Of a stretch of 64,000 nucleotides of DNA, positions 11,858 through 54,704 are shown in pieces. The notes below the pieces were generated by a model. The model was given only the letters and a program-made list of their open reading frames with translations. It did no database searches and was not told the origin of the DNA. The DNA lies in assembly GCA_963674595.2 (NCBI GenBank), contig CAXXFV010000013.1:21261-85260 (forward strand). Reading direction: 5' to 3'. Source of the DNA: a bacterium (GTDB lineage: Bacteria > Zhuqueibacterota > Zhuqueibacteria > Residuimicrobiales > Krinioviventaceae). The translations under genes were made by a program, and so were the position numbers. Each line of letters begins with the position of its first letter. Positions within the stretch are counted from its first letter, which is position 1.

Positions 11858-11976
11858 AATCACTTCCTTGTGTATGCTTTTGAAACCCGTACTTGTAAAA
11901 GGTGGTAAATCAGTCAGGGACCTCAAAAAATTAATGCTCGACCAGGTTGTATAAAAAACAGTCCCTTAAAACTGAC
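11858..11976 (-). ncRNA. Candidate structured leader RNA (motif G), copy 1, upstream of lnt
   Basis: GTCAGT...AGGGAC...TGGTCGAGCA...GTCCCT.ACTGATTTACC...AAGGAAGTGATT, directly after promoter TTGCAG-N17-TATTAT (12010-11982). Confidence 0.55.
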
Positions 11977-12171
11977 AGACAATAATACAAACTTTCTTAA
12001 ACTGCTGCAAGCTGTTTTTAAAAAATTTTTAGCCGGCAGTTGTAAATATTGCGCTTAGTGTGGGTGTTGGGTAATTTCCAGGTCAGCAAAATGTCCGGGC
12101 GATCAATTGATATATGCAGGGGTTAAAAATTTAAAATCCCCATGGTTTACTTTATTCAGAACACAGGCATC

Positions 12172-12199
12172 GTAGAGACGCACGGCCGTGCGTCTCTAC
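12172..12199. repeat. Repeat module N: GTAGAGACGCACGGCCGTGCGTCTCTAC palindrome
   Basis: Perfect 28-bp palindrome; degenerate copy at about 41971-41997. Both follow module M2 (GTAGGGGTTAAAAATTTTTAACCCCTAC type, best copy 18302-18329, also about 12116, 39414, 41915). Confidence 0.8.
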
Positions 12200-12368
12200 A
12201 ACTTTGCTTAAGGTCCGGGCCTTGATCGGAACCGAAACACAAATCAAAACACGTCATTCCTGCGAAACAGGAATCCAGAAATTTTACGGAACGTCTTTGT
12301 GACCTCTGCAGCTCTAAAACTAATTTTTTGCTCGCAATTGGAACACTCTAGGCGGGTAAAAAGTCAGT

Positions 12369-13625
12369 TTACTTAAGCAGGATCATTTTTTTAATCACAC
12401 TCGTACCGCCACCGTCCAGACGATAGAAATATGTTCCTGAAGATAAATTCCGAGCATCAAACAACACCTGATGTGTACCGGCCTGACAGTGACCGTCCAA
12501 CAATACCGCAACCTTTTGTCCACTCATGTTGTAAACCTGGAGGCTGTAATGATCGTTTTTTGCCGCCTGGAAGGTGATTTTTGTGGCCGGATTAAATGGA
12601 TTTGGATAATTTTGTTGTAAAACAAAATCCGTAAAAAGTTCACTATCGATTTGTTCAATTCCTGCCGTGCTTCCTGAATAAGTATACGCGGATAGTAATC
12701 CACCACCATTAGTGGTAAAAATAGTACCGCTAGATGAAACAGCAACGCTTATGGGATAACCATCCTCAATGTTTGCAGTATTGGTAAAACCGGAACCATC
12801 AAAAGTATAAGCACGCAGGCCATTATTACTATTAGCAAGAAAAATTGTACCATCTGATGAAATTGCGGCATCAATTGTACGGCCAATATCAGTCTGAGTG
12901 ATTTGAGTAAAAGAAACACCATCATACGTGTACGCACACAAACCTCCGGCGTCACCATTTGAAAGAAATACAGTACCATCTGATGAAACTATCACACTAT
13001 GGGCGTCACTTTCTCCGTCACCAATATTTGCTGTTTTAGAAAACGTAGAACCATCAAATGAGAATGCAATTAAACCATTCGATTCTATAGCAATAAAAAC
13101 TGTATTGTCAGAAGAAACAGTTAATCCAGTAGCATAAATATCATAATTTAATATTTCAGTTATTTTATTAAAAGAGGAGCCATTATAACTAAATGCATAT
13201 AATCTTGAAGACTCACCGGCAGTAAATACTGTGCCGTCAGCCGATACAGCTATATCTTTGGCATGAAAACCTTGCGCGGATGCTGTGTTGGTAAAAGAAT
13301 TTCCATTATATGTAAAGGCATGAATGCCCCCATCACCGCTTGCAGTAAAAACCGAACCGTCAAAAGAAACAGTGACTGCCAAAATTTCTATTCCATCCAA
13401 ATTAATATGGGCGGTATTGGTAAAGGTCGTTCCATCAAACGTATAGGCACGCAGACCATCATAACCGTTAGCAATAAAAACAGTACCGTCCGAAGAAACA
13501 GCTACATCATATGCCTGACCATCGACATTGATAGCAGCGGTATTGGTAAAGGTGTGAGGTAGCTGACAATAAACCAGGTTGTACCCCAAAAAAACAAACA
13601 ATAATAGTAAAGCGCTTTTTTTCAT
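12369..13625 (-). CDS. Secreted beta-propeller-like repeat protein with C-terminal sorting domain
   Basis: Seven ~42-aa repeats (V.VSSDGTVF.A....GL.AY.FDG..FT.TA.I) and QNYPNPFNPAT C-terminal domain. Confidence 0.85.
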   Translation of the reverse strand: MKKSALLLLFVFLGYNLVYCQLPHTFTNTAAINVDGQAYDVAVSSDGTVFIANGYDGLRAYTFDGTTFTNTAHINLDGIEILAVTVSFDGSVFTASGDGGIHAFTYNGNSFTNTASAQGFHAKDIAVSADGTVFTAGESSRLYAFSYNGSSFNKITEILNYDIYATGLTVSSDNTVFIAIESNGLIAFSFDGSTFSKTANIGDGESDAHSVIVSSDGTVFLSNGDAGGLCAYTYDGVSFTQITQTDIGRTIDAAISSDGTIFLANSNNGLRAYTFDGSGFTNTANIEDGYPISVAVSSSGTIFTTNGGGLLSAYTYSGSTAGIEQIDSELFTDFVLQQNYPNPFNPATKITFQAAKNDHYSLQVYNMSGQKVAVLLDGHCQAGTHQVLFDARNLSSGTYFYRLDGGGTSVIKKMILLK

Positions 13626-13724
13626 TTTACCTCCTTTTTAAATTGAAAAGATTTATCAGGATTATTTTAATTTATATATAATTTGCCGTTGCCATTATAT
13701 CCTGGTCATATAACAAAATCGGGT

Positions 13725-13844
13725 AATCTCTTCCTTACAAGTATTTTAAATCCCGATATTTTAAAAAAAGTGGTAAATCAGTCAAGGTTGTCAGGAGGCC
13801 CCGTGCGTGACCAAATTGTCCTGAAAATCGTCCTTTTGTCTGAT
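13725..13844 (-). ncRNA. Candidate structured leader RNA (motif G), copy 2
   Basis: ATCAG..AAGG..TCAGGA..TTTGGTCACGCACGGG..TCCTGA..CCTT..CTGATTTACC...AAGGAAGAGATT after promoter TTGCCT-N17-TATAAT (13879-13851). Confidence 0.6.
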
Positions 13845-13934
13845 AAAATAATTATACAAATTAAATAAAATCAAGGCAAGATATTTTTGAAAAATTTTGA
13901 AAATAATATTTACCCATCCTCAAATTCTTTATCT

Positions 13935-14010
13935 TCTCACAATGTTCACAAAGCTCACAAAGGATGATTTAAATTGTTATTTCTTTGTGTACCTTGTGTA
14001 CTTTGTGAGG
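13935..14010 (+). repeat. Repeat module C: CTCACAATGTTCACAAAGCTCACAAAG...CTTTGTG..CTTGTG..CTTTGTGAG foldback
   Basis: Copies at 13935, 26596, 37320, 42092, 44422, 48994, 54476, 57012, 58192, 60275, 62780, 63927, all in the same orientation. Built of ~9-nt CACAAAG units and their complements. Confidence 0.92.
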
Positions 14011-14611
14011 GTTTATATTAACCAGGACATTTGGCCCTGTTGAAAATGTAAAGTTACCTTTTTTGAATATTGTCGTTTAATCTCGATTTTGTAAAAAATT
14101 CAGGACAGACTAATTCTCCGCTCGCAGGGGACATACATTCCCCTGCGGAACCAATGAAACCGGGATTTTATCCCAAATGGAAACAAATTCTCCTGCTTGA
14201 AACCCGGGCCTTGAGCGGAGTCGAAAGGCCGCTCAGGGTAGCACCCGATTGAAACCCGTCTACACGTCATCCCGGGCGGTGTCGAGGGAACACTCAGCAG
14301 CTCTCCCCCACTCTGCATTTGCCTTTTGTTTAAAAATTACGTATCTTTTATTCAGATACTCGCCCCCTATTCATTCATGTTCATACCAGGTGTACACGTT
14401 CAATGCACCCGGTTGATATATGGATAAAAGTGTACAATAATTTAAATTTTTATTATTCCAGATCAAACAAAATGTTGATTGTCCCTCGCCAGGCGATCGT
14501 TTCATTGGTTAACGAATGTAAAAATAAGGATAAACATAATTTGCCGGTACTCATAACGACAAGAATTATCCTGATATCATTATCATGTTCGCTTATTCGA
14601 TGGAGGTGTTA

Positions 14612-34039: not shown

Positions 34040-36823
34040 CTATTTTTGTAAAATTAATTTCCTGGTCTCAATATAATTATCAGCTTTTAACCTGTACAAA
34101 TAAATTCCATTTGCCAGGCCGCCAGGTTGCCATTTTACATTGTATTCTCCTGCTGTATGATAACCATCAACTAATGTCTCTATGAGTTGACCGGAAAGAT
34201 TATAAATAGCAAGCTTGACATATGATGATGTTGGTAACTGAAAACTAATCGTTGTTTCAGGATTAAAGGGATTCGGGTAATTCTGTTTCAATCTAAAAGA
34301 CTTTATGTTTTCAATATCATTAGATTCACACGTTACATCCGAACTGGATGTAAAATAAGCCGTAACATCTTTATCCTGCGTCATCGTTATATTTTTAGGA
34401 TTTACGCTTCCGCTTATTCCACCCCAATAATCAAATGTAAAGCCTGAATTTGCGACTGCTTCTAATTGTACTGTTTCGTTATAACTAAAATTAGTCTTGT
34501 TTGGAGTTTTATTCACACTACCAGAACCTGATGGACTGGAAGAAAGTACAAGATTACAATAAGAAAGAGCAACAGATTTTGTGCCTGACCAGCCGGAAAC
34601 GATACCTGTGTGTGTTTGACATCGGGCGCGTGCTTTAACATATTTAGTGCCGGAGCTGCTAAAAGCGTGGCTTTTTGTTAAAGCGCCCCAGCTTGATTGC
34701 GATCCGTCACCCCAATCAAACTGATATTCAACCGTATGTCCCAAATTGCTGCTTGAGCCTCCGGTAGTGAATGCTAAACTTTGCCCAACCTTGCCGCTAG
34801 AAGGACCGCTTGGTTTATTTGGTGTGGAGACAGTCTCCTGACTCTGGTTTTGAGTAAAATTAGCCGTAACACTTTTATCACCGCTCATTGTCAACGTTTG
34901 TGGATTGGCACTGCCGCTTAACGCACCATCCCAAGTATTAAAGTAATAACCTGAAATCGGATTAGCAGTTAACTGAACTGTTTCATTATAAGTAAAATTG
35001 GTCTTGTCCGGATTTTTATTAACACTCCCTTTACCGGCAGGATTTATTGTAATTGAAAGAACACAGTAAGAGATGGCAACAGATTTTGTGCTTGACCAAC
35101 CGGATACTATACTTGTGTGTGTTTGACATCGGGCGCGTGCTTTAACATATTTAGTGCCTGTGCTACTAAATGTGTGGCTTTTTGTTGAAGCGCCCCAACT
35201 TGATTGTGATCCATCACCCCAATCAAACTGGTATTCAACATTGTGTCCTAAATTACTGTTTGAGCCTCCAGTACTGAATGATAAACTTTGCCCAACCTTG
35301 CCGCTAGAAGGACCGCTGGGCTGATTAGGTGTGGAGATGGTCTCCTGACTTTGGCTTTGAGTGAAATTGACCGTAACACTTTTATCACCGCTCATTGTCA
35401 ATGTTTGTGGATTGGAACTACCACTTAACGCACCATCCCAACTATTAAAGTAATAACCTGAAATTGCGCTGGCTGTTAACTGAACTGTTTCGTTATAAGT
35501 AAAATTGGTCTTGTCTGGATTTTTATTAACACTTCCTTTGCCGGCAGGATTTATTGTAATTGAAAGAATACAGTAAGAGATGGCAACAGATTTTGTGCTT
35601 GACCAACTGGAAACAATACTCGTATGTGTTTGACATCGGGCGCGTGCTTTAACATATTTAGTGCCTGTGCTGCTAAAAGTGTGGCTTTTTGTTAAAGCGC
35701 CCCAACTTGATTGTGATCCATCACCCCAATCAAACTGGTATTCAACATTGTGACCTAAATTACTGTTTGAGCCTCCGGTAGTAAAAGATAAACTTTGTCC
35801 TGCTTTACCGCTTGAAGGACCGCTGGGTTGATTGGGTGTGGATACTGTCTCTTCTGTTTGAGGTTCTGTTACAGTTATATAATTTGTTTTTGTTACTTCA
35901 TCTCTTTGACTCACAGAAATTGCATTCAAAGTAACATTATAAGTACCTGGTGTACTATAAGTATGTAAGGGATTTTGTGTACTGCTGGTTGCTCCATCTC
36001 CGAACGACCAGTTCCAATCTCTTGGATCACCCACAGTTAAATCTGTAAAATTTACAGATAAAGGGGCAGAACCTGTCCTTGGAGATGCTGAAAAATCGAT
36101 ATTATGCGTTATAGGACCTTCAAAACTACCGGAACTTGGAAAAAATAAATCATGCCATGTACCATCATTATAAGTACATTGAAAACGAAATGTGTTGGTG
36201 CCAAACATGAGATAGCTGCCATTAACTGTTTGATAATACTCTTTTCCTGTTCGAATATCACCAGATCCTTCATTCATTATCATAGTGTTTGATCTACTGG
36301 TACCAGAGTTTATACACACATAAACACTAGAGGGTTCGTCTCCTTCAGTGTCGGTGCAAATAACACTATATCTATAGGTATCCTCATTAAGCTTTCCCCC
36401 GGATTGAGGCGTCACCTGACCATTTGACAAAGCCGGAGGTTGATTTTCAGGTTCTTCAGATGCAATTATTACAATATCAAAAACTTTTTCTATTTTTAGT
36501 TCGTGATCAGAATTATAAAACCGATAAGTAACAGTCCCGGTAAACGTTGTACCATTAGCGACAGAACCGGCAACCGATATGTCAAATCGGGCATATACAG
36601 CATAACCATTACTTATAAGATCATCATGAGTGACATTAATAGTGCCTGGAAACGAATCATTTATTTCATAAAATGGATAAGCGAGAACAGAGGTCGATCC
36701 TACATTTTTATTTAAACTCTTCGTTTCTCCAGGTGGGATATAAATCGTTGTTTGCGCCAGCACCAGTTCTGACATCAAAATCAAACCCGAAACCAAATAA
36801 AACAACATGCTTTTACAATTCAT
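34040..36823 (-). CDS. Secreted PKD / InlB B-repeat-like surface protein with C-terminal sorting domain
   Basis: WSFGDG and FDWGDG PKD motifs, three tandem PKD plus B-repeat units, QNYPNPFNPET C-terminal domain. Confidence 0.88.
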   Translation of the reverse strand: MNCKSMLFYLVSGLILMSELVLAQTTIYIPPGETKSLNKNVGSTSVLAYPFYEINDSFPGTINVTHDDLISNGYAVYARFDISVAGSVANGTTFTGTVTYRFYNSDHELKIEKVFDIVIIASEEPENQPPALSNGQVTPQSGGKLNEDTYRYSVICTDTEGDEPSSVYVCINSGTSRSNTMIMNEGSGDIRTGKEYYQTVNGSYLMFGTNTFRFQCTYNDGTWHDLFFPSSGSFEGPITHNIDFSASPRTGSAPLSVNFTDLTVGDPRDWNWSFGDGATSSTQNPLHTYSTPGTYNVTLNAISVSQRDEVTKTNYITVTEPQTEETVSTPNQPSGPSSGKAGQSLSFTTGGSNSNLGHNVEYQFDWGDGSQSSWGALTKSHTFSSTGTKYVKARARCQTHTSIVSSWSSTKSVAISYCILSITINPAGKGSVNKNPDKTNFTYNETVQLTASAISGYYFNSWDGALSGSSNPQTLTMSGDKSVTVNFTQSQSQETISTPNQPSGPSSGKVGQSLSFSTGGSNSNLGHNVEYQFDWGDGSQSSWGASTKSHTFSSTGTKYVKARARCQTHTSIVSGWSSTKSVAISYCVLSITINPAGKGSVNKNPDKTNFTYNETVQLTANPISGYYFNTWDGALSGSANPQTLTMSGDKSVTANFTQNQSQETVSTPNKPSGPSSGKVGQSLAFTTGGSSSNLGHTVEYQFDWGDGSQSSWGALTKSHAFSSSGTKYVKARARCQTHTGIVSGWSGTKSVALSYCNLVLSSSPSGSGSVNKTPNKTNFSYNETVQLEAVANSGFTFDYWGGISGSVNPKNITMTQDKDVTAYFTSSSDVTCESNDIENIKSFRLKQNYPNPFNPETTISFQLPTSSYVKLAIYNLSGQLIETLVDGYHTAGEYNVKWQPGGLANGIYLYRLKADNYIETRKLILQK
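34345..35851 (-). repeat. Intragenic tandem repeat, 3 x 507 bp
   Basis: ET(V/I)STPN units at 35851, 35344 and 34837, visibly similar at DNA level. Confidence 0.92.
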
Positions 36824-37044
36824 TTCTAGTCCTCTTGGATTTAATTATTAACCTATGTTAATATGAAAAAACAAATAAATAGTTATAATAAAAAATTAAT
36901 TTAAAATTTAATTCAATATAAAAAAAGGGACATACAAATCAATTATGTTTTCTATAATAAAAACCGGCTAATTGTTTCACACAAAATGTTTGATTTTTCA
37001 AAAAAATAGTTTAGTACTTTGCTTTTGGAATTTTTTTTTAAGGT

Positions 37045-37110
37045 GGTAAATCAGCTAAAGGTTGTCAGGAGTTCCCAAACTTATTCCTAATAACAAACTT
37101 AAAGTCTGAC
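37045..37110 (-). ncRNA. Candidate structured leader RNA (motif G), copy 3, divergent loop
   Basis: GTCAG..AAG.TTGTT..AGGA..TCCT.GACAA.CCTT..CTGATTTACC after TTGCCT -35 (37145-37140). Confidence 0.5.
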
Positions 37111-37352
37111 AAAGTAATATAACAAATTTAATAAAAGCAAGGCAAGGGATTTATATAAAATATTGAAAATAAAAAAACAGCCGATATAAACAGGGGTTTA
37201 TTTTCCCGCTCGCAGGTGCTTAAAAATCCCCCTGCGCAACCAATGAATTCGGGATTTTATCCCCAATGGGAACAAATCCCCCCTTGGCTCCGCTCCGAGT
37301 GACACGGCTCGTTTTAACCTCTCACAATGTTCACAAAGCTCACAAAGAAACA

Positions 37353-38835: not shown

Positions 38836-39026
38836 TTCACTCTCCTTTATAATATGGGTATAACGTTATTTCAATACATTTCTTTACCCATATTCGCAGT
38901 GGACATATATAGTTTTAGAGTGCCGTCTTTCGGCATCGTTTAGATGATTTTTTCTTAATCCTCATGCAATGGTGCGGTAGAACCGCTCCCCACAGATGAA
39001 AACAATTCTCAATATCTTGTAAAATA

Positions 39027-39055
39027 ATGATACAGATTAAATAAAATCAAGGCAA
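39027..39055 (-). promoter_or_regulatory. Repeated sigma70-type promoter module without the leader hairpin
   Basis: TTGCCT-N17-TATCAT, near-identical to the promoter at 13851-13879. Confidence 0.65.
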
Positions 39056-39232
39056 GGAATTTATAAAAACACTGGAAATATTTTCGAGGGCGTAAAAAAA
39101 AACAGGACATCTGCCCTGCTATAATAATTATCCCCAATGGAAATAAATTCTTCCCCATCAGCTTTGCTCAGGGTGGCACCCGTTCGAAATCGCGGACGCT
39201 GAGCAAAGTCGAAGCGGGAGCGTTGTCAAGCT

Positions 39233-41015: not shown

Positions 41016-41567
41016 CTACCATTTTGGAGCCGATGAAAGCGAAAACCAGGATTCCTTATATTTATAAAGTTTTTCCATTGTAACAGGATGTTTTTTTGCC
41101 TGTCTTTTAACGAAATATAAATAATTCTCTTCTTTATCTATGATGATTGAATCACCATATGCAATTCCATATTCTTCCAGAATTGGTCTTCCTGTATTTA
41201 CAGGGTAAAATATTTCGGTAGTAAGAACGCTGTCATTATCAAGTTTATAATAACCAATTAAACCACCATCTGTATAATTTAAATCCTCATTTGTTAATGA
41301 ATCACTAAATAGATCACTACGGTAAACTCGTCCATTTCCCCAAAATCTATAAAAATAAAATTGAGTAGTATCAGTACCATATAATTTAGACATGTAGACA
41401 GCATTTGTATCAATATATGTCGTCGTAGATAACTGGAATGGATAATTTATAAGTTCAAATTCCGGTTTAATTGGTCGATAACCGCCACCCGGCGTTTGAT
41501 AAGCAATAGGTGAACATGATATAAATAATAATGCTATAAATACTAATTTTAAAAATAGTGATTTCAT
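41016..41567 (-). CDS. Hypothetical lipoprotein
   Basis: LFISC lipobox; FYRFWGNG...GYYKLDNDSV pattern loosely shared with 49541..50227. Confidence 0.7.
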   Translation of the reverse strand: MKSLFLKLVFIALLFISCSPIAYQTPGGGYRPIKPEFELINYPFQLSTTTYIDTNAVYMSKLYGTDTTQFYFYRFWGNGRVYRSDLFSDSLTNEDLNYTDGGLIGYYKLDNDSVLTTEIFYPVNTGRPILEEYGIAYGDSIIIDKEENYLYFVKRQAKKHPVTMEKLYKYKESWFSLSSAPKW

Positions 41568-41730
41568 CTTTATTCGACCTGGTTATAATTTAACGGCGCC
41601 ATCCATTATATATTTTAAATGGTAATCATAGCGGTACTCCCGAACCGGCACCATATTAATATAAACAAACCACACCCCATCCAATAATAATGACCGTGAA
41701 ATAACAGGAATGTGATTTTGTGAGCAACGC

Positions 41731-41852
41731 AATCTCTTCCTCGTGTAAGTATTTGAATTTCGTATTTATATAAAGGTAGTAAATCAGCCGATAACTTGAA
41801 TAGTTCCCGTGCGCGACCAAATCGTCCTAAAAAGTCGTTCGTTATGACTGAC
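41731..41852 (-). ncRNA. Candidate structured leader RNA (motif G), copy 4
   Basis: GTCAGTC.ATAAC..TAGGACGATTTGGTCGCGCACGGG..CTA..GTTAT.GGCTGATTTAC...GAGGAAGAGATT after TTGCCT-N17-TATTAT (41887-41859). Confidence 0.6.
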
Positions 41853-42355
41853 AAGATAATAATACAAATTAAATAAAAACAAGGCAAGTGGTTTTTAAAA
41901 AAAGTTGAAAATAGTGCGGGGATTTAAAATTTTAAATCCTTACATGGATTACTTTACAGAACACTGACTTGATAGAGACGTACGGCCGTGCGTCTACAAC
42001 TATGCTGCGGAACCAATGAATTCGGGATTATATCCCCAATCCAAAAGTGATTCCCTTCGAGTCTGCCCAGGGTGACACGACTCGCCTTCATCTCTCATAA
42101 AGCTCACCAAGAAGCAGAACTGTGATCATCCAGGGGTTCCTGGCCCTTGTATATAAAACATACCTTATTTATAGTCGATGCTCGCCCCGCAACTCTTTTC
42201 CGGGGCGTTAAATAAACCAGGGCATCTGCCCGGCCCCGTTCTCAAATAACGGGCCCATATAAATCATTACACCTCGGTTTATCGGGGTAAATACCCCGCC
42301 TGATGTGCGCCTTGAGAAATTTCCAAGGCGTCCAAGTAAACAAAACAAAGCGTCA

Positions 42356-44254: not shown

Positions 44255-44306
44255 CCCGCTTCGACCCGGTCCTTGAGCGGAGCCGAAAGGCCGCTCAGGG
44301 TAACAC
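44255..44306 (+). repeat. Repeat module I: CCCGCTTCGACTCGGTCCTTGAGCGGAGCCGAAAGGCCGCTCAGGGTGACAC
   Basis: GAGCGG-AGCC-GAAA-GGCCGCTC hairpin; copies at about 14200, 18420, 28711, 33791, 44255, 48927, 53077, 54410, 58138, 60209, 62670, 63860. Confidence 0.88.
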
Positions 44307-44661
44307 TCCCGCTCGCAGGGGATTTGCAATCCCCTGTGGAACCAATGAAATTGGGATTATATCCCCAATCCAAAAGTGATTCCCTTCGAGTCTGCTCAGG
44401 GTGAAACGGCTCGTCTTAACCTCTCACAATGTTCACAAAGCTCACAAAGAAGCAGAAATGTGATCGTCCAGGGGTTCATAGCCTTTCTCTATAAATCATT
44501 CCTTATTTATATCCGATGCTCGCCCCGGAACTCTTTTCCGGGGCGTTAAATAAACCAGGGCATCTTGCCCGGATCAATTCTCAAATAACGGGCCCATATA
44601 AATCATTACACCTCGGTTTATCGGGGTAAATACCCCGCCTGATGTGCGCCCTGGGAAAACG

Positions 44662-44744
44662 GTAGGTTGGGTTCATCTTTTTGAACCCAACATTTTCATC
44701 AGGGTTTTGTTAATTGGCGGGTCCGTGATCCGGACCCGCGCTAC
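44662..44744 (+). repeat. REPIN-like doublet L+K (GTAGGTTGGGTTC..GAACCCAAC...GGCGGGTCCGTGATCCGGACCCGCGCTAC)
   Basis: Degenerate copies at about 37588-37621, 61122-61200 and 61876-61908; overlaps the stop of 44710..45777. Confidence 0.75.
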
Positions 44745-45777
44745 TACTTCTAATGAATCTCATATTTTCAAGATATTTGATAACTTCAAGTGATATTCTG
44801 CACTTAAGATTAGAGCAATCATTTATCCAAAAAACATCCTGTTCTGAAGTTTTCTTTAAATAAAGTATACCACTCAGATTCTTAAAATATGAATTGAAAT
44901 CTTCAATATCTTTAAATCCTTTTGTAATAAAAAAGTCTTTGTTATTACGAATGATGTTTGTGAAAATACAATGAATTGTTTTACTTAGATCGAAATCTTC
45001 ATGAGTCTCGCTTGCAGAAGTAATTATAAGTAAATTTGTTTTATTGGGAATTAATTGTCTTATTTTATCAAAAATATCATCTGTAAATTTATAATATTCT
45101 TTTTGTGAGTAAAATACAGGCCTTGAAGTCAAACCATAATAGCATATAAAGCTATTGTTTGCTTTTCTAGTAGGACTTGTAACTTCCATAAAAAAGTTAT
45201 TATCAAATCCAGGAACTACAAATTCTTTAATGTCATCAGAAGATAGCTTTTGATCAAAGTTATCAACTTTTTTTTTTATAAATTTAACAATATTTGGTAT
45301 TTCATTGTGAAGTTTTGTAAAAATAGAATCATTTTTTACAGTGCAATCTATCCAGAATGAAAATGCAAGAGAAGACTTTAGATGAGATATTTGATTTTTT
45401 ATTTTTTCGTCAAACTCTTTTACCAAATCATCGTGCTGTGCACCAATAATTCTCTTCACCTCGATAATAAATTCAGTTTCATTTTTATATTGAACTAGAA
45501 AGTCAGGTTTTTTATTATATTTTTTAAATTCTTTTTCATACGTTACTGTGAAAAGTTCGTTCCTGAGTAACAAGTATGCTACTTCCATTTCGAATATCAA
45601 ATCTGACATTTCGTTTTTTTTATTGTTACAGTTTTTAATTTTTTTTCTGATTTTATCTTTATTGTACAATACAAAATTATAAAATCTATTTGATGAGATT
45701 AACCAATTTTCTACAATAGAAGTGAAATCCTTATCTCCGTTTCTGAATATGTATTTTATCAGACTGTTTTTATCCAT
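44710..45777 (-). CDS. Putative PD-(D/E)XK nuclease-fold protein
   Basis: FEMEVAYLL...YEKE...KPDFLV...IIEVKRI; very AT-rich. Confidence 0.6.
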   Translation of the reverse strand: MDKNSLIKYIFRNGDKDFTSIVENWLISSNRFYNFVLYNKDKIRKKIKNCNNKKNEMSDLIFEMEVAYLLLRNELFTVTYEKEFKKYNKKPDFLVQYKNETEFIIEVKRIIGAQHDDLVKEFDEKIKNQISHLKSSLAFSFWIDCTVKNDSIFTKLHNEIPNIVKFIKKKVDNFDQKLSSDDIKEFVVPGFDNNFFMEVTSPTRKANNSFICYYGLTSRPVFYSQKEYYKFTDDIFDKIRQLIPNKTNLLIITSASETHEDFDLSKTIHCIFTNIIRNNKDFFITKGFKDIEDFNSYFKNLSGILYLKKTSEQDVFWINDCSNLKCRISLEVIKYLENMRFIRSSSAGPDHGPAN

Positions 45778-45848
45778 TATATTTCCTGTTTAGGAACCTC
45801 TGTGCGATCATAACCTGCAATGGTGCGGTAGAACCGCAACCTACAGAC

Positions 45849-45955
45849 TGATCCGTTCTCAAATAACGGGCCCATATTAATCATTAAACCTTAAACTTAT
45901 CGGGATAGATACCTCGCTTGATTTACGCCTTGGGAAACATTCCCAAGGCGAGCAG
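45849..45955 (+). repeat. Repeat module D: (TAAAACAGGGCATCTTGCCCTG)ATCCGTTCTCAAATAACGGGCCCAT...TATCGGGGTAAATACCCCGCC...CGCCTTGGGAAACATTCCCA(A/T)GGCG
   Basis: Copies at about 18162, 21232, 26896, 42208, 44545, 45849, 54566, 57092, 58264, 59240, 62878; fragments at about 6590, 14019, 26671, 39095, 49083, 50369, 60356, 61855. Confidence 0.92.
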
Positions 45956-45963
45956 AAACAAAT

Positions 45964-46560
45964 TTAAGTATAATTAATCTTCTCTAATTCTAAGATTAAA
46001 CCAATGTTTTTAAATGAAATGTTTGCAATCTTAGAAAAATCAAAAAAGGCCTCACCAGTCGAATTTCCTCCACTAGTAATTATAACTTCTTCTCTTAATG
46101 GCTCTGTCCTTTTACAATTATAACCAGTTAAATTCCAAACTTGTTCTTTTGTAATTACTTGAAAATTATTACTATTATTTTCAAAGGGAAAGGCAATTTC
46201 AATTATTGGAATATTAGCAAGATGGTAATTATCCAGCATTAGTTCAATTTTATTAAGAGAAAAGATTGAATCAGTATTATTTTCAATTTTAAAACTAGTT
46301 AATACACATTCATACTCTTTGCTTATTTTGTAATAAAACACAGAAAAATTAAAATTAATTTCATCAATTTCTAGTGTAAGTCCATTATTTTCTAACACAT
46401 AGAAAGCTTTATATAAAATATCTTTTATACACAACTCTCTATCAAAAGATCTATATTCCTTAAATAAATTGATTTTATTTTGAATATGCCCACAGTGTGG
46501 ACAGTAATTAAAAACATTCATTGCTTTTTCATTACAATTTCTACAAATTATATAATCCAT
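45964..46560 (-). CDS. Hypothetical protein with N-terminal zinc ribbon
   Basis: CRNC-X9-CPHC; AAGGAG RBS before ATG 46560 (track 46620). Confidence 0.7.
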   Translation of the reverse strand: MDYIICRNCNEKAMNVFNYCPHCGHIQNKINLFKEYRSFDRELCIKDILYKAFYVLENNGLTLEIDEINFNFSVFYYKISKEYECVLTSFKIENNTDSIFSLNKIELMLDNYHLANIPIIEIAFPFENNSNNFQVITKEQVWNLTGYNCKRTEPLREEVIITSGGNSTGEAFFDFSKIANISFKNIGLILELEKINYT

Positions 46561-46642
46561 TTTTACTCCTTGTAAAATAAATACAAAAAATATTTCAGAA
46601 TGTAATATATATGTCTTCATAACCTTTTAGAAAGATTTATAA

Positions 46643-46773
46643 GTTGTAGGCCGGATTTTCTTGTTGAACCCGGCAATAGAAATAACCGGAAGGAAAATAT
46701 TTATACAAGTATTACAAAATTAATAAAAATAAGTATCAAATAAATGATGGGCCAAAATGGCCCATCCTACACC
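46643..46773 (-). repeat. REPIN-like doublet, inverted copy of 37353-37478
   Basis: Reverse complement aligns across both hairpins and the AT-rich core. Confidence 0.85.
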
Positions 46774-46793
46774 ATTTCAAATTGAAAATTAAT

Positions 46794-47543
46794 TTATTTT
46801 CCAATTAATGCTTGCAAATTTATGGAGAAACCTGCTTCTACAAGTTCTTGTGCAAGTTTTGTTTTCCATGCACCTGATTTATCAATTTCAGTATATACAA
46901 CGCCCTGATAGTCTGATGGTATTTCAACTCCTGCCTTATATAATGCGCACACTCTTTGTCTTCCTAATTTCCCTAAGAAATAACCTAATTCCATTATAAC
47001 GTTTTGGCGAGCTCGATCATTTATTGAATTTGAATTATCTTTTGAACCACCAACATCGTCAGGTGTTAAAAGCACAACTGCAAATCCTACATCTGAGAAG
47101 ACTTCAAATTTTTCAATTATTGTTTTTCCACTATTGGCTTGTTCATGGAGAATAATAGGCGCTAATTTTAATTTCTCTATAAATCTAGCCACGGACTCTT
47201 TTGTTTCTGCATCATGCCCATGAACAATAAACACTTTATTCGTTTTTGTAAGTGCTGCTTGATTACTCGACGAATCTTGAGTATCCATTGTTTTGCTTCT
47301 TATAATATTAGACTCTGCTTTCAATACAAGTCCTTCAAGGTAACCTATTTGACTTGGAAGGGAACTTTCCCATGATGAGAATCTATCAGGGCCCAATGAT
47401 AAAAACTTTTCTGCCACTTCAGAACTGATTGCAATTTTTAAAAACATATTTACACGTGAGAGCCAATTCTGATATTGACTGCTAACTTGACAAGACCAGC
47501 CAGACTCTATTATGTCATTAATCTTTCCTACAAGTTTCTCCAT
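46794..47543 (-). CDS. TIR-like nucleotide-binding protein (CAP12/PF10137-type TIR)
   Basis: KVFIVHGHD...IILHEQANSGKTIIEKFE...FAVVLLTPDD...RARQNVIMELGYF...IPSDYQGVVY; start at 47543 by RBS (track 47615). Confidence 0.88.
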   Translation of the reverse strand: MEKLVGKINDIIESGWSCQVSSQYQNWLSRVNMFLKIAISSEVAEKFLSLGPDRFSSWESSLPSQIGYLEGLVLKAESNIIRSKTMDTQDSSSNQAALTKTNKVFIVHGHDAETKESVARFIEKLKLAPIILHEQANSGKTIIEKFEVFSDVGFAVVLLTPDDVGGSKDNSNSINDRARQNVIMELGYFLGKLGRQRVCALYKAGVEIPSDYQGVVYTEIDKSGAWKTKLAQELVEAGFSINLQALIGK

Positions 47544-47702
47544 AAAATTCCTTTCAACCTGCCATGTATTACTTTTCCAGTGCGTTAGATAAATATGGGG
47601 CTTTGTTTTGTTCAATTCTGATGGTATTTTATACCTACAAATGCTAAGCCTTTACTTTATTTACTCCCAGCAGATTTCAACCTCCTGGCGTGTTGCTCTT
47701 AG

Positions 47703-48560
47703 TTATAAAACCATTTCTTTGTATTCAGATGAGTCTCTATGTTTTTCTTCACTAAAAATCAAGTGTAGGCTATAGTACTTATAAACTTCTACGGCTAGTT
47801 TATCTGCTTGTGAACTTCCTAATAATCCTTTGTAAAAAATCTTCACTCTATTATTTTCAATAGGTCCTAATTCAAAATAGCCATCAATCCTATCGCCAAT
47901 AAAATTATATAGTTGTTGTAGCATATCCGACGAATTCCACTTTAAAGAACTTTTCGATATAGTCTTTTTGTCTATTTCACCAATTTTGTCTTTGAGTGAA
48001 TCGATTTGGAGGCTAAGGTAGTCTAATTTAGCATCAGTTCCTGTCTCTCCCTCATAGGGTCGAGCTGATGATCTTAACCCGAAGTAACGCCAAAGTGTAT
48101 TTACACCTTTGCTCCTCACTTCTGTTACGCGGATGTGTTCAGCTAGCTTTTTGATTTCATTTTCCAGTTCCCACGGTTCGATGGAACTCTTGTATTCTTG
48201 ATAATTAAGAATTCCAGTATCGAAAGGTATCTTTTGCGTGTGCTCATCTTTAACAACACAGACAGATTTGTTCAAAGAAGTCCTTATTCCAAATTCAAAG
48301 AATACATTTGGATTTAGGCAAGACATGTCACAAAGGACAAGATCAGCCATTTCCAGGTTGCGAATAATTTCTGCGTGAATAAGATCTGAACCCTTTGCAA
48401 TAGGTGTTATTGGCTCATATCCCGCAGCTAAAACAGATGGCGTAAAAAGGCATTGCAAAACATGCATAAAGTGATCTGAACCATCCCTATACTTTTCAAG
48501 CTGTGTATCAGGTGTAGTTATAGGCATAATAATAAAGCAAGTTTTATCGTTCTTGGGCAT
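47703..48560 (-). CDS. Nucleoside 2-deoxyribosyltransferase-like (NDT/TIR-like fold) protein
   Basis: KTCFIIMPI...ADLVLCDMSCLNPNVFFEFGIR...IPFD motif. Confidence 0.75.
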   Translation of the reverse strand: MPKNDKTCFIIMPITTPDTQLEKYRDGSDHFMHVLQCLFTPSVLAAGYEPITPIAKGSDLIHAEIIRNLEMADLVLCDMSCLNPNVFFEFGIRTSLNKSVCVVKDEHTQKIPFDTGILNYQEYKSSIEPWELENEIKKLAEHIRVTEVRSKGVNTLWRYFGLRSSARPYEGETGTDAKLDYLSLQIDSLKDKIGEIDKKTISKSSLKWNSSDMLQQLYNFIGDRIDGYFELGPIENNRVKIFYKGLLGSSQADKLAVEVYKYYSLHLIFSEEKHRDSSEYKEMVL

Positions 48561-48694
48561 CCTGGAATCTCCATCCTTATTTTGCTGAGTAACAATATAT
48601 TATTGTACAACTCTATCAACTAAACATACTACACTTCACCACACCCAAAATATCTAACCGTAAACCAACAGGAATATGACTCTCTAACCGACTC

Positions 48695-48819
48695 AATCTC
48701 TTCCTCGTAAGTACTAAAACTTCCCATATATAAATTTAAAATGAGGTAAATCAGTTTAAGGTTTTCAGGCTCTCCCATGCGCGACCAAATCGTCCTGAAA
48801 AATCGTCCTTTTGTCTGAT
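48695..48819 (-). ncRNA. Candidate structured leader RNA (motif G), copy 5
   Basis: ATCAG..AAGG..TTCAGG.ACGATTTGGTCGCGCATGGG..CCTGAA..CCTT..CTGATTTACC...GAGGAAGAGATT after TTGCAC-N17-TAACAT (48854-48826). Confidence 0.6.
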
Positions 48820-49134
48820 AAAAGAATGTTACAAATTTTGTGTTATTAGTGCAAGCGGTTTTTAAATATGTTTAAAATAAGTGTAGGGGTAGAATATCCT
48901 TTAGGGTAAATAACCTGCCTTCTGCTCCCGCTTCAAGTCCGGTCCTTGAGCGGAGATGAAAGGCCGCTCAGCGTGACACATGCTCACCTTACCCTCTCAC
49001 AATGTTCACAAAGCTCACAAAGGTTGATTAAAATTGTTATTTCTCTGTGTGCCTTGTGTGCTTTGTGTGCTTTGTGAGGGTTTGAATAAAACAGGGCAGG
49101 ATATTCATCGTATCGTACGGTTAATTTAAAAAAA

Positions 49135-52399: not shown

Positions 52400-52846
52400 C
52401 TATTTTATATTTAATATTGGAACAATGTTCTCTTCTTTCGTTGATTTTTTTCCTATTCCTTTAAAAATTTTAAAATGATGTGTATGTTTCCTGCCATCAT
52501 AGTGGAACACTGTCTTTAGTTTTGTACCTTTGCTATTAAAATAGTGTATCTCTTTCCAACCCTTGTTGAGCGGTATTTGTAAAAATTGGTCAATTTCTTT
52601 GATATTTTCATCTGAATAATGATAGTTGAAATATTCTGCTACGTAAGAGTTACTTTGGCCGCTATAAAATTGAATTTCATAAATTATGTCATTACTGATA
52701 TCAATAATAATCGAGAGACTAGTTTTAACTTTACCTTGTGCAGAGCCGACTGTGATTATTAAATCTTTGCCGGATTCCACTGTGCTTAGAGTGTATGTAT
52801 TCTTGTCAGCAAATTTTCTGTTAATGTGTTTTTGCCATTCACTCAT
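52400..52846 (-). CDS. Hypothetical protein flanked by ~65-bp direct repeats
   Basis: Likely start MSEWQ at 52846; the upstream extension in the ORF track runs through repeat DNA. Confidence 0.6.
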   Translation of the reverse strand: MSEWQKHINRKFADKNTYTLSTVESGKDLIITVGSAQGKVKTSLSIIIDISNDIIYEIQFYSGQSNSYVAEYFNYHYSDENIKEIDQFLQIPLNKGWKEIHYFNSKGTKLKTVFHYDGRKHTHHFKIFKGIGKKSTKEENIVPILNIK

Positions 52847-52938
52847 TTTAATAAAGGCCTGGTATAGTTTTAATACAGTTCCATATCTGTATTTACAGTT
52901 ATATGATGCAATTTTGCGGCACCCTGCCACTTTTAAGA

Positions 52939-52967
52939 ATAGTACAAATTTAGTCAATCCCCTGCAA
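52939..52967 (-). promoter_or_regulatory. Repeated sigma70-type promoter module
   Basis: TTGCAG-N17-TACTAT with the same upstream flank as the motif G promoters. Confidence 0.6.
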
Positions 52968-53194
52968 GCGGTTTTTGAAAAATGTTGAAAACAAGTATAG
53001 GGACATAAATTGCCCTTTCCGTCATCCCGAGCGGAGTCGAAAGGCCGTTCAGAGTGACATCCGTTCGACGACGCTCCCTCTTCGACTCGGTCCTTGAGCG
53101 GAGCCGAAAGGTCGTTCAGGGTGACACCTGCCGGCGATAAACATCCGGAAAATGGTGCGGTAGAACCACACCCTGCTGACTGTAATCCGGATTT

Positions 53195-54041
53195 TTAATA
53201 ATATTTGTAATGAATTTCATGGTCTATATGAGAACTATAACGAGGCACATATACTTTTTCAATGACTAATTCATATCTCTTGTTATATTTATAAAATATT
53301 TGGTCACTTACATCACTAAAATTTGCCCCATAACCTTTAACATTTACAAGCAGTCCATCATTATAATAATATACATATCTATGTTCAAGTAAACCGGCAG
53401 CGGTATAAACAAACTTTTCAGTCATAATTTCATTAAAATATTTGTATACGATAGAATTTATCAAGTCACCCCCCATAATAATACTCTGCTTTCATTAACA
53501 GCCCGTTTAAATATTCAAATTTATCTCTGTAAGATTTTGCATATTCTTTATGAGGGTCCCTTCTTATTGATTCAACAAGATTTCCCTCAATATCATATTT
53601 ATAAAAAACCGTATCCCGCAGAGTAAAATTTGGAGTTGAATGGAGTGTTTCTTTTTGCACAAGCCTGTTTAAAGAATCGTATCGATATTCAATGGTATCT
53701 GTAAAAGTGTTTCCATCAAAAACCACTTCTTTTATCAAATTGGACAGACTATCATAATAATAATGGGTGGTAGAGTAAATTTCCAGATCCGAGGATGCTT
53801 TTGTTTTAGTTTTGAGCAATCCGTTACCATAATATTCGTAATTTGTTCTTTCAAGAATATTATTTGAATCAAGCGGATAGTACGTCTCAGATTTTACCTT
53901 AGAGTTAGAAACTCGAAGCGGTCCTGCCGGCCGGGATTCTCCACTGAAATCAGATTCTATCTGGTTTGTTAAATCCTTTGAACAGGAGAGTGTAAAACAG
54001 ATTACAAAGAACAATACAAAATACCGGGTTTTAGATTTCAT
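53195..54041 (-). pseudogene. YD/RHS-repeat-like lipoprotein split by a frameshift in a G6 run
   Basis: ORF 53466..54041 (FTLSC lipobox, YYYD..SNLIKE repeats) ends YYYGG*; removing one G at 53469-53474 fuses it to 53195..53476 (GGDLINS...), which continues the same Tyr-rich repeats. Confidence 0.75.
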
Positions 54042-54177
54042 AATTAAACCTCCGTTTATCCGGGGCTTCACCCCAATTGTGTAGTTTTGCCTTTGGCTCC
54101 GGTCAACTCGACACGAAACCACCGGAGATTAACATCCGGGAAATGGTGCGGTAGGACCACACCCTGCCGGCTGATTC

Positions 54178-54302
54178 AATCTCTTCCTCGTAAGTACTAA
54201 AACTTCCCATATATAAATTTAAAATGAGGTAAATCAGTTTAAGGTTTTCAGGCTCTCCCATGCGCGACCAAATCGTCCTGAAAAATCGTTCATTTGTCTG
54301 AT
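54178..54302 (-). ncRNA. Candidate structured leader RNA (motif G), copy 6
   Basis: Near-identical to copy 5; promoter TTGCAC-N17-TATCAT (54337-54309). Confidence 0.6.
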
Positions 54303-54704
54303 TAAATAATGATACAAACTTTGTGTTATTAGTGCAAGTAGTTTTTAATTATGTTTAAAATAAGTGTAGGGGTAGAATATCCTTTAGGGTAAATAACCTG
54401 CCTTCTGCTCCCGCTTCAAGTCCGGGCCTTGAGCGGAGATGAAAGGCCGCGCAAGGTGACACCGCTCGGTTTCGACTCTCACAATGTTCTCAAAGCTCAC
54501 AAAGTATGATTTAAATTGTTATTCCCTTGTGCACGGAGTGTGCCTTGTGCGCTTTGTGAGGACTTGAATAAACCAGGCCATCTTGCCCTGATCCGTTCTC
54601 AAATAACAGGCCCATATGAATTATTAAACCCTTGCTTTATCGGGGTAAACACCCCGCCTAATTTACACCCTGGGAAAGGTTTTCAGGGCGAACAATGCAA
54701 CTGC

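Follow-up and report, generated by a model that had tools for sequence, protein, structure and literature searches.

In the window analysed here (the whole 64,000-nucleotide stretch of DNA), similar promoter-leader segments recur on the minus strand before unrelated genes, which raises the question of what is being repeated and what it does for the genes that follow. A sequence-only reading had counted six copies, and had proposed a cis-regulatory RNA such as a riboswitch or attenuator, or else a free-standing multi-copy sRNA.

Copies in the window and in the genome

The intervals given by the sequence-only reading open with the -35 hexamer at the high coordinate and close with the last base of the AGGAAG(A/T)GATT box at the low one, and all six minus-strand copies are present at those positions. 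The segments extend on both sides of these intervals, as given below.

11982..12035, minus: copy 1, A/T tract and promoter (-35 TTGCAG 12005-12010; -10 TATTAT 11982-11987)
11784..11981, minus: copy 1, leader (R1 113.2 bits); by motif positions, hairpin I from GTCAG 11972-11976 to CTGATTTAC 11905-11913, second box 11858-11868, ATATTCCT 11834-11841
13851..13904, minus: copy 2, A/T tract and promoter (-35 13874-13879; -10 TATAAT 13851-13856)
13668..13850, minus: copy 2, leader (R1 107.5 bits); homology fades in alignments right after the second box, 13725-13735
37117..37170, minus: copy 3, A/T tract and promoter with a weaker -10 (TTATAT 37117-37122)
37040..37116, minus: copy 3, truncated leader reduced to hairpin I, the apical TGGTCG box and the second box both missing; R1 match of 46.8 bits given as 36959-37116, alignment homology ending near 37040
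41859..41912, minus: copy 4, A/T tract and promoter (-35 41882-41887; -10 TATTAT 41859-41864)
41657..41858, minus: copy 4, full-length leader with hairpins I and II (R1 169.4 bits); box 41731-41741, its partner ATATTCCT 41706-41713, G/T-rich end near 41673-41682
48826..48879, minus: copy 5, A/T tract and promoter (-35 48849-48854; -10 TAACAT 48826-48831)
48621..48825, minus: copy 5, full-length leader (R1 189.1 bits, the top match of the genome)
54309..54362, minus: copy 6, A/T tract and promoter (-35 54332-54337; -10 TATCAT 54309-54314)
54103..54308, minus: copy 6, leader (R1 127.9 bits); homology fades in the alignment right after the second box, 54178-54188
52936..53001, minus: promoter-only look-alike without leader, before ORF 52400-52957 (nhmmer, HMM positions 18-82, E 1.2e-7)
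39004..39079, minus: promoter-only look-alike, before a rhodanese-like ORF at 38443-38835 (Pfam Rhodanese; nhmmer, HMM positions 27-101, E 1.3e-5)

An HMM of the six window copies recovered all six with E-values of 4e-27 to 7e-55, excluding chance similarity. The six are real but represent an undercount, as the covariance model R1 built from the copies returned 91 matches in a search of their own genome, and an extended HMM gave 110 nhmmer matches, 91 of which span at least 120 model positions. This single bacterium holds about 90 copies of a unit that couples one promoter to a folded leader RNA, standing before unrelated genes. The copies are clustered: 55 of the 91 have a neighbouring copy within 10 kb (24% expected), and 38 lie on three contigs that make up 7.6% of the genome. 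A second study yielded a contig (~98.5% identical) in which copy 4 is conserved. A covariance-model search of 60 relatives from the same family, order and class recovered zero module copies, a pattern that suits a lineage-specific amplified module and not a conserved sensor. As the sequence-only reading had supposed, the element is not a known Rfam family; no match was found at gathering scores, nor at E<=1 when ten copies were queried.

Anatomy and pairing of the module

The module is ~250 bp in length and consists of an A/T tract and promoter, a ~200-nt leader with two hairpins, and a G/T-rich end. Of 80 copies, 76 preserve the pattern TTGC-N17-TAnnAT, and the spacer measures 17 nt in 72; in the window, five copies carry TTGCnn-N17-TAnnAT with RTCAG 5-6 nt on, the exception being the -10 of copy 3, in agreement with the earlier description. 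Hairpin I is long and interrupted and begins near the predicted +1. Hairpin II buries a GAGGA-N6-TTG start, in which the SD-like GAGGA and the adjacent TTG pair with the downstream ATATTCCT. In most copies homology runs ~90 nt past the second box, and many terminate in GTTGGGT. Mean column identity over 45 copies is 55%, with the blocks TCAG, GGTCG, CTG.TTT, GGG and AGATTG nonetheless at least 90% conserved.

The paired stem changes noted earlier were seen again in the alignment and in single-sequence folds (copy 1, AGGGAC/GTCCCT; copy 4, ATAAC/GTTAT; copy 5, AAGG/CCTT and TTCAGG/CCTGAA). Beyond the window, the arms of hairpin I out-paired the arms of other copies in 56 of 65 cases (-16.2 vs -13.0 kcal/mol), with p-values that are overstated because the copies share ancestry. 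In the model-fitted alignment, which is biased toward structure, double changes were seen in 20 of 27 pairs, compared with 10.4 +/- 2.1 in shuffled controls. The corresponding signal in hairpin II was marginal (-6.27 vs -5.88 kcal/mol, p 0.03). Covariation in a larger alignment, on which the sequence-only reading had staked its proposal, was significant in the model-fitted alignment and the alignment-free arm test, but not in a structure-blind MAFFT alignment of 45 copies, where 11 double-change pairs were found against 7.3 +/- 1.7, 15 of 500 shuffles reached that number and partners shifted by one column scored as well. G-U cells outnumbered A-C cells (156 vs 67) and the given strand folded better than its complement, which together point to a transcript from the given strand. 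Hairpin I is thermodynamically weak: copies 1 to 6 of the window give z-scores of -1.38, -2.20, 0.05, -0.35, -1.39 and 0.05. The compensatory signal in hairpin I is real but modest, and matching arms could also be attained by templated quasi-palindrome mutation of the DNA, without selection on RNA.

These results bear on the reading that the module is passively duplicated DNA whose sole function is that of an ordinary promoter. Confinement to one genome, weak folding energies, the structure-blind result and a short ORF lacking coding constraint (see below) are all consistent with it, but it would leave the near-invariant blocks, the preserved promoters and the preference of hairpin arms for their own partners without explanation, and we consider it quite improbable.

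A second reading starts from the GGA and GGGA motifs, which rank among the nearly invariant leader positions and may resemble CsrA sites. The leader would then be controlled by CsrA or titrate it, with several conserved motifs (at the arm and apex of hairpin I, in the linker ACGGGAT and in the GAGGAAG box) binding the protein and repressing translation; one such motif overlaps the SD-like box, and the genome encodes one CsrA homologue (86.9 bits). The homologue sits, however, in an ancestral flagellin-like/FliW/CsrA cluster, and the usual target of CsrA in such a cluster is the flagellin mRNA. By a rough estimate, five GGA per ~200 nt is also only about twice the expectation from composition. 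We consider control by CsrA quite improbable.

Downstream genes and spread of the module

The genes that follow the six window copies are listed below.

10136..11689, minus: after copy 1, apolipoprotein N-acyltransferase, a second Lnt paralogue (Pfam CN_hydrolase and LNT_N)
12369..13625, minus: after copy 2, secreted beta-propeller-like protein with a type IX secretion C-terminal domain (Pfam Por_Secre_tail)
34040..36823, minus: after copy 3, PKD/InlB B-repeat protein with a type IX secretion C-terminal domain
41016..41567, minus: after copy 4, putative lipoprotein with no Pfam family
46794..48560, minus: after copy 5, two genes, 47703-48560 (weakly TIR/NDT-like) and 46794-47615 (CAP12/Pycsar-type TIR effector)
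53466..54122, minus: after copy 6, lipoprotein with RHS repeat

The other Lnt of the genome, on contig C6, is 27% identical to the one after copy 1. The earlier label "NDT-like" for 47703-48560 is weak: the match to Pfam Nuc_deoxyrib_tr (E 0.038) falls short of the threshold for that family, and a TIR effector model from PADLOC matches at 1.3e-5. Genome-wide, the downstream genes are likewise unrelated, and include genes for defence, toxin-antitoxin and secreted proteins, Lnt and an integron integrase. Among the products are a type II restriction enzyme (113.4 bits), a ThsB-like TIR (193.9 bits), a DrmD-like SNF2 helicase (255.8 bits), Schlafen-like, MNT-type nucleotidyltransferase and Gp49/HigB-like proteins, a hybrid sensor kinase, type IX secretion cargo, outer-membrane barrels, and lectin-like and LVIVD-repeat proteins. 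When the 700 nt downstream were scanned for ORFs of at least 100 aa, the longest was co-oriented with the module in 75 of 80 cases, opposed in one and absent in four, supporting the earlier view of a promoter-coupled, strand-specific element before unrelated genes.

A terminator-like hairpin was found within 200 nt after the module in only 11 of 80 copies, and no shared 3' terminator or attenuator terminator was found across the copies, leaving the free-standing multi-copy sRNA unsupported. The short ORF opened by the module's TTG is not constrained as coding sequence (entropy 1.26/1.08/1.12 at the three codon positions), ranges from 1 to 330 codons in length and ends at -71 to 1598 nt from the downstream gene; the SD-like box buried in hairpin II is not that gene's own ribosome-binding site. 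A ligand-sensing riboswitch, or a protein- or tRNA-dependent attenuator for each downstream gene, would account for conserved loop sequences beside variable, paired stems and for the buried SD-like box. It is nevertheless very unlikely: the scarcity of terminators and the variable gap are joined by weak folding energies, the lack of any pathway common to the downstream genes, and the empty searches of Rfam and of the 60 relatives. The module stands out as an example of promoter re-use, and not as a proven new riboswitch.

The integrase gene (TIGR02249, 454 bits) lies directly downstream of one copy. Its sole canonical start is the module's TTG, and from this start residue 7 aligns to residue 7 of NF011946, the 337-aa NCBIfam integron-integrase equivalog. 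Integron core sites have the motif GTTRRRY, which the GTTGGGT end of many copies fits, and the downstream genes resemble cassette cargo, suggesting an attC- or attI-like recombination site that marks gene cassettes. This reading is disfavoured and barely credible. The copy beside intI lies upstream, is co-oriented and supplies the intI start codon; no inverse core site pairing with the 3' motif was seen by eye; and the two attC sites of the integron itself, with the ends AACGTTAGGT and AACGTTAGGC, bear no relation to the module and occur nowhere else in the genome. A crude attC finder gave eight places, none in the module, although it missed the true attC sites as well.

The ends of the module also bear on how it spread. 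Of the 110 nhmmer matches, 60 reach the G/T end, 32 stop within the leader and 18 stop after the promoter, an irregularity that also counts against an integron site, and the 5' flanks vary by subfamily. Terminal inverted repeats were not above chance (best inverted match 6.68 nt, against 6.65 nt in controls). A selfish miniature mobile element with an outward promoter, either Correia/REPIN-like or an ssDNA hairpin moved by a Y1/HUH transposase, would explain the many copies in one genome with none among 60 relatives, their clustering in variable islands and the complementary arms of hairpin I, which would act as a DNA recognition structure with gene activation as a by-product; the genome's RAYT/IS200-like protein gene even sits between two near-identical copies. 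However, the inverted REPs flanking that gene are unrelated to the module, the irregular 3' ends, the subfamily-specific 5' flanks and the lack of terminal inverted repeats above chance speak against such an element, the G-U over A-C excess favours a one-strand RNA, and the 75:1 bias toward the downstream gene would not be expected from random insertion. We regard a mobile element as unlikely.

The explanation that we judge probable is a lineage-specific, cis-acting expression module of ~250 bp, promoter plus 5' UTR, that was spread by recombination and confers shared post-transcriptional control. A consensus sigma-70-type promoter with its upstream A/T tract would drive the ~200-nt leader, each copy supplying its downstream gene, in cis, with a promoter and 5' untranslated region. 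The leader is predicted to start at or beside hairpin I, whose arms appear to co-evolve while the apical loop sequence is kept, and this hairpin may protect or process the 5' end and supply a common binding site. Such a site would let some ninety accessory genes be controlled post-transcriptionally in common, perhaps through a shared regulator; if so, defence, toxin-antitoxin, type-IX-secreted proteins, the second Lnt and the integron integrase would all be governed together. Copying to at least 91 sites, chiefly in gene-variable islands, may have proceeded by promoter capture or duplication through recombination, and not by transposition or integron recombination.

Comparison with known systems

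Some leader RNAs work in cis on the polymerase that transcribes them or on decay from the 5' end; examples are put of phage HK022, the EAR element of B. subtilis and 5' stabiliser hairpins, as in the ompA leader. The module would resemble them in placing a structured RNA right after the promoter to act on its own transcript whatever the gene, but Rfam searches found no sequence or model similarity. In integrons, a short ORF at attI aids cassette translation, and one module copy likewise gives the integron integrase its promoter, SD-like box and start codon; unlike attI and attC, the module lacks paired core sites, its junctions are ragged and the true attC sequences are different. The upstream homology box of the Borrelia ospE/ospF-related genes is a promoter region recombined before several different lipoprotein genes, with co-regulation, and is plasmid- or prophage-borne at few related loci. 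It shares with the module a common upstream promoter region before differing genes, whereas the module occupies about ninety chromosomal loci before wholly unrelated genes and adds a long structured leader.

Correia repeat-enclosed elements of Neisseria, also cited in PMC3575422, are described as having inverted-repeat ends and as able to make a promoter at either or both ends (PMC2649163). Like the module, they are high-copy, intergenic and promoter-supplying, and their transcript hairpins may alter adjacent gene expression; the module differs in its lack of inverted ends, its single promoter, its one gene-relative orientation and its ragged 3' ends. Putative mobile promoters (Nijveen, Matus-Garcia and van Passel 2012, PMC3575422), like the module, are highly similar non-coding stretches that precede unrelated genes within a genome and are not linked to any known mobile element. 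Some of these stretches carry RNA motifs, as the authors point out. By their account most of the families are pairs, surveyed at -150 to -50 of the start codon, whereas the module lies further from the start codon than that window and forms a family of 91 members, with a ~200-nt leader, co-varying hairpin arms and a 75:1 orientation toward the genes that it precedes.

Promoter-plus-leader copies in this genome and the search for them beyond it

A single promoter-plus-leader unit is re-used at ~ninety loci in this genome and points into the next gene (co-oriented at 75 of 80 copies, opposed at one and with no such gene at four, judged by the longest ORF (>=100 aa) in the 700 nt that follow). 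The unit is a module of ~250 bp composed of an A/T tract, a sigma-70-type promoter and a leader RNA of ~200 nt. Six copies and two promoter-only look-alikes lie in the window.

Module copies and promoter-only look-alikes in the window
11858-12010, minus strand: module copy 1
13725-13879, minus strand: module copy 2
37045-37145, minus strand: module copy 3
39004-39079, minus strand: promoter-only look-alike, with A/T tract, -35 and -10, without the leader
41731-41887, minus strand: module copy 4
48695-48854, minus strand: module copy 5
52936-53001, minus strand: promoter-only look-alike, with A/T tract, -35 and -10, without the leader
54178-54337, minus strand: module copy 6

The six copies share 69% mean column identity over ~200 aligned columns, and each interval marked in the sequence-only reading has the -35 hexamer as one exact boundary and the end of the AGGAAG(A/T)GATT box (the second box) as the other. 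That reading's TTGCnn, 17-nt spacer and TAnnAT-type -10 in five copies, with RTCAG 5-6 nt further on, is confirmed; the weaker -10 it had noted in copy 3 reads TTATAT, and the homology of this copy ends past the first hairpin. The stem variants it had listed are all present, in the alignment and in single-sequence folds. An HMM of the six copies re-finds them with E-values of 4e-27 to 7e-55, which rules out chance, and yields ~80 further matches genome-wide at E<1e-8. The count of six holds for the window but is an undercount for the genome, where R1, a covariance model of the family built from 45 copies (202 positions, with 27 pairs assigned by the analyst), has 91 matches at E<=0.001, six of them in the window. 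An extended HMM has 110 genome matches at E<1e-5; in 91 of them the match spans 120 model positions or more.

In an alignment of the 45 long copies, conservation begins at the A/T tract ~25 nt 5' of the -35 and continues through the promoter, a long interrupted hairpin (hairpin I, from RTCAG to CTGAT), a TTTACCAC box, an ACGGGAT linker box, and the box ACGAGGAAGAGATTG with its partner ATATTCCTGTT, fading past a G/T-rich stretch of the TTGGGTTGGGTG type. The family is conserved block-wise although mean identity is 55%. The promoter TTG[CA]NN-N15-19-TANN[AT]T is found in 76 of 80 copies, 72 of which have the 17-nt spacer. The 3' ends are ragged and scattered along the entire model: of the 110 matches, 60 extend to the G/T end, 32 break off in the leader and 18 end after the promoter. 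The last group (~18/110) resembles the two window look-alikes, which suggests that the promoter part is near the general consensus promoter of the organism. The 5' flanks are subfamily-specific, with for example a terminator hairpin, a CACATTTCGTGCGGG-type box or a CAGGATATTCTACCCC-type box. Over 217 nt of upstream flank alone, copies 5 and 6 share 86.6% identity. Judged by eye, the copies form mosaic subfamilies. They are also clustered: 55 of 91 have a neighbouring copy inside 10 kb, against a uniform expectation of 24%, and contigs C13, C29 and C26, with 7.6% of the bases, hold 38 of the 91.

GC-rich repeat families occupy the long intergenic DNA upstream of copies (minus strand, 48905-49120, 54388-54600, 13930-14330 and 41940-42350). 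They include a GAGCGG...CCGCTC palindrome, a long inverted repeat of the form TCACAAAG.../...CTTTGTGA, and a GTAGAGACGCACGG...-type palindrome, and they recur at many loci at variable distances.

Two kinds of mobile repeat were considered and rejected. A Correia-like MITE is contradicted by the absence of terminal inverted repeats, the subfamily-specific 5' flanks and the spread of the 3' ends; in 65 copies, the two ends of one copy give a best inverted match of 6.68 nt on average, against 6.65 nt for ends of different copies. As to a REP mobilized by a RAYT-like gene, the RAYT-like ORF present has inverted REPs of its own, and the module copies flanking it are in direct orientation. This locus (G000:C23:97797-98343, on contig C23 outside the window) holds an IS200/RAYT-like ORF, so named from its N-terminal sequence, and its inverted REP pair between two near-identical direct module copies.

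Outside this genome, R1 found zero matches in 60 genomes, namely 18 from the family (10 genera), 24 others from the order and 18 from the class, under Infernal's stricter filters, and a second run over the order was likewise empty (0/42); the genus has no further representative. An exact-pattern scan returned 5 loci from a set of one genome per GTDB species and 14 from JGI metagenome contigs, none of them an R1 match, with a 21-nt fragment (15.2 bits, E 0.19) as the single trace among the 19. The pattern is strict, its looser form without the first T occurring at only 16 places in this bacterium's own genome, so diverged relatives could escape the scan. That the leader was not recognised as a known family is borne out by Rfam 15, with no matches in the window at gathering scores and none at E<=1 on ten copies. 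Contigs of a second public study carry window positions 37347-42052, copy 4 included, with 72 differing letters in ~4.7 kb; copy 4 is thus stably inherited between two strains. Most of 44.7-54.4 kb is without high-identity cover in these contigs, a gap that carries no evidential weight. Many of their joints connect different copies (e.g., 41743 to 48764), which we attribute to the assembly graph passing through the repeat and not to rearrangement. Among sequencing runs, no RNA data set is listed as holding window positions 41000-49000.

Genes behind the copies and the second box

The upstream neighbour gene is co-oriented with the module at 66 of the 80 copies and divergent at 14. From leader start to ORF the distance is 228-512 nt at 28 of 29 loci measured; the 29th is the integrase described below, where the ORF-picking script jumped to the following gene. 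Genes downstream are not paralogues: by Pfam and NCBIfam, those behind the six window copies, the integrase and 20 further genes belong to differing families or to none. Among these 27, LVIVD repeats are common to two, and a type IX secretion tail is found on three otherwise different proteins. In the window, the description of the downstream genes as unrelated was correct, these being an Lnt, two proteins with type IX secretion tails, two lipoproteins and a weak TIR/NDT-like protein. The Lnt behind copy 1 (10136-11689, minus strand) is a second paralogue, 27% identical to the other Lnt on contig C6, and a close counterpart (36-41% identity) is present in only 4 of 18 family relatives. Directly behind the gene of copy 5 is a protein with a CAP12/Pycsar-type TIR effector domain (46794-47615, minus strand; PF10137, 134.5 bits), so that copy 5 is the probable driver of a defence-like operon of two genes, the TIR/NDT-like protein being followed by this effector.

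Elsewhere in the genome the cargo includes lectin-like, LVIVD-repeat and outer-membrane barrel proteins, a hybrid sensor kinase, a DUF805-TPR protein, a Schlafen-like protein, an MNT-type nucleotidyltransferase, a Gp49/HigB-like toxin, an integron integrase and several family-less proteins. Defence genes among it encode a ThsB-like TIR, a DrmD-like helicase and a type II restriction enzyme. PADLOC matched seven of 10 downstream proteins at E<=0.001, three of them strongly.

The second box lies within a second hairpin (hairpin II), in which AGGAA..GATT pairs with AATC..TTCCT and buries both a GAGGA and the TTG six bases on. At G000:C3:115820-116812, on contig C3, the integron integrase (TIGR02249, 454 bits against a cut-off of 265) lies in frame behind the module. 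The module's TTG is the sole canonical start of this ORF, and read from it, residue 7 aligns with residue 7 of NF011946, the 337-aa NCBIfam integron-integrase equivalog profile. From this register we infer that the module appears to give intI its promoter, SD-like box, start codon and ~eleven codons.

Across the family, the second box is found in 46 of 80 copies and the TTG in 42. The ORF opened by this TTG varies from 1 to 330 codons (median 32), with a gap to the gene of -71 to 1598 nt, and it lacks excess variation at the third codon position (1.26 / 1.08 / 1.12). A leader peptide was rejected on the missing third-position excess and the erratic ORF length and distance to the gene. The suggestion of a riboswitch or attenuator found no support either. 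Terminator-like hairpins follow only 11 of 80 copies and precede 34 of 80, arguing against a terminator-type attenuator, and the buried SD-like box goes with the short, variable-length ORF rather than with the gene, arguing against a riboswitch that sequesters the gene's ribosome-binding site; none of the 60 relatives has an R1 match.

The integrase belongs to a small integron (G000:C3:112971-116812, outside the window, partly covered by locus L060) and is co-oriented with its cassettes. Behind intI come two cassette ORFs, one of 419 aa (lipoprotein-like) and then one of 322 aa, both followed by a canonical attC that ends in AACGTTAGGT or AACGTTAGGC. Directly beside it is a CRISPR array of ~50 identical repeats (G000:C3:102555-111900, also outside the window), and the N-termini of adjoining ORFs resemble a reverse-transcriptase-fused protein, Cas1 and Cas2, names that come from reading the sequence. 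A folded attC or attI site has paired inverse and direct core sites. Many module copies have a 3' GTTGGGT, for which no partner was seen by eye; a crude attC finder gave eight places, none in the module, but it is insensitive and also missed the true attC sites. An attC or attI identity for the module was rejected, as the integron's own canonical attC sites are unrelated to it and unique in the genome, and the module's 3' ends are ragged.

Tests for a conserved leader structure

Hairpins I and II recur in single-sequence folds, and the arms of hairpin I co-vary, though modestly, the covariation being not significant on a structure-blind alignment. With 66 copies in the model-fitted alignment, 86.3% of cells are paired, compared with 83.2% after shuffling, and double changes are found in 20 of 27 pairs, against 10.4 +/- 2.1. 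There are 54 double-change cells, compared with 18.6 +/- 3.8 in shuffles and 19-24 with slid partners, and G-U cells outnumber A-C cells by 156 to 67. In an arm test, where the alignment serves only for cutting out the arms, the 5' arm of hairpin I folds better with its own 3' arm than with those of other copies in 56 of 65 cases (-16.2 vs -13.0 kcal/mol), and the given strand folds better than its complement (-16.2 vs -13.7). The folding z-scores of hairpin I in window copies 1-6 are -1.38, -2.20, 0.05, -0.35, -1.39 and 0.05.

The claim of compensatory stem changes carries over to more copies in the model-fitted alignment and the arm test, but not in the structure-blind MAFFT alignment of 45 copies. 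There, 11 double-change pairs compare with 7.3 +/- 1.7; shuffling reached that number 15 times in 500, and a one-column slide of the partners scores equally. Mutual information on a MAFFT alignment is swamped by the unalignable tail and gives no usable signal. RNAalifold recovers only a 5-bp closing helix from 45 copies and a weak consensus (-2.44 kcal/mol) from the six. Templated mutation in DNA quasi-palindromes could mimic compensation. We read hairpin I as a real, weak, strand-specific hairpin under some constraint.

For hairpin II, own arms reach -6.27 against -5.88 kcal/mol for crossed arms (p 0.03, overstated like all p-values of the arm test since the copies are related to one another); we take hairpin II to be kept mainly as sequence, with marginal co-variation of its arms. 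No long-range helix was supported between the G/T-rich tail and the CA-rich stretch ahead of the second box (own -6.20 vs cross -6.16 kcal/mol, p 0.4), and pairing of the tail with the linker or with the 5' arm of hairpin I was negative in both cases. A search for a trans antisense partner of the apex yielded no separate locus, the seven loose matches outside the copies including four in another repeat.

Possible function and comparison with known systems

Transcription would start at or beside RTCAG, which would place hairpin I at the extreme 5' end. In that position it could protect the mRNA from 5'-end-dependent decay, or alternatively be a double-strand-specific processing site. A shared recognition site may be formed by the invariant apex (GGTCG..CA.GGG) together with the GGA-type boxes, and hairpin II may restrict ribosome access at the module's own start. 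The ragged junctions, mosaic subfamilies and local clustering suggest spread by recombination.

The genome encodes CsrA in a FliW context, and conserved GGA motifs are seen in the leader. A flagellin-like gene, fliW and csrA stand in a row at G000:C23:704846-706630 (locus L118), the ancestral FliW-CsrA arrangement; this is the only CsrA homologue found in the genome. The FliW-associated CsrA is, speculatively, one candidate binder of the leader. A broader reading, which we consider unlikely, is that the leader is the handle of an accessory-genome-wide switch, in which a dedicated trans-factor reads the hairpin I apex and the GGA-type boxes. Candidates for this factor would be RNA-binding proteins, the FliW-partnered CsrA for example, or, by analogy with put, the transcribing polymerase. 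With such a switch, ~ninety horizontally acquired genes would be jointly expressed, silenced or made termination-resistant, the regulon would include anti-phage defence, toxin-antitoxin, type-IX-secreted proteins and the integron integrase, and a new gene would join it just by recombining behind a module copy.

How bacteria express newly acquired genes, and coordinate defence with other accessory genes, is an open problem. One genome appears to solve it with a single reusable promoter-plus-leader unit in ~ninety places, among them the front of an integron integrase and several positions before recognised anti-phage genes. Should the leader turn out to be a shared control point, the family would rank among the largest single-genome cis-RNA families and be a natural plug-in regulon for foreign genes. 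Should it be inert, the family can still serve to calibrate surveys of promoter re-use, as an instance that is unusually large and clean.

Among known systems, Correia elements, in the portions of the source available, are similar in delivering promoters and in forming hairpins in transcripts, but have inverted ends, which the module is without (PMC2649163). The closest described concept is promoter re-use by putative mobile promoters, and the module fits it. The available parts of that survey report more than 4000 families, mostly pairs, some with RNA motifs and their movement unexplained, defined by similarity at -150 to -50 from the start codon (>=80% over >=50 nt) (PMC3575422). With leader starts 228-512 nt before the ORF, the conserved block of the module is mostly upstream of this span. 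Like those promoters, the module is highly similar non-coding DNA upstream of non-paralogous genes in one genome; as far as these parts of the survey describe its families, the module stands out by copy number, strict orientation and a long leader with co-varying arms, and is further set apart by its cargo of defence genes and an integrase (PMC3575422). As an example of promoter re-use it is large and clean, and it is confined to a single uncultured genome.
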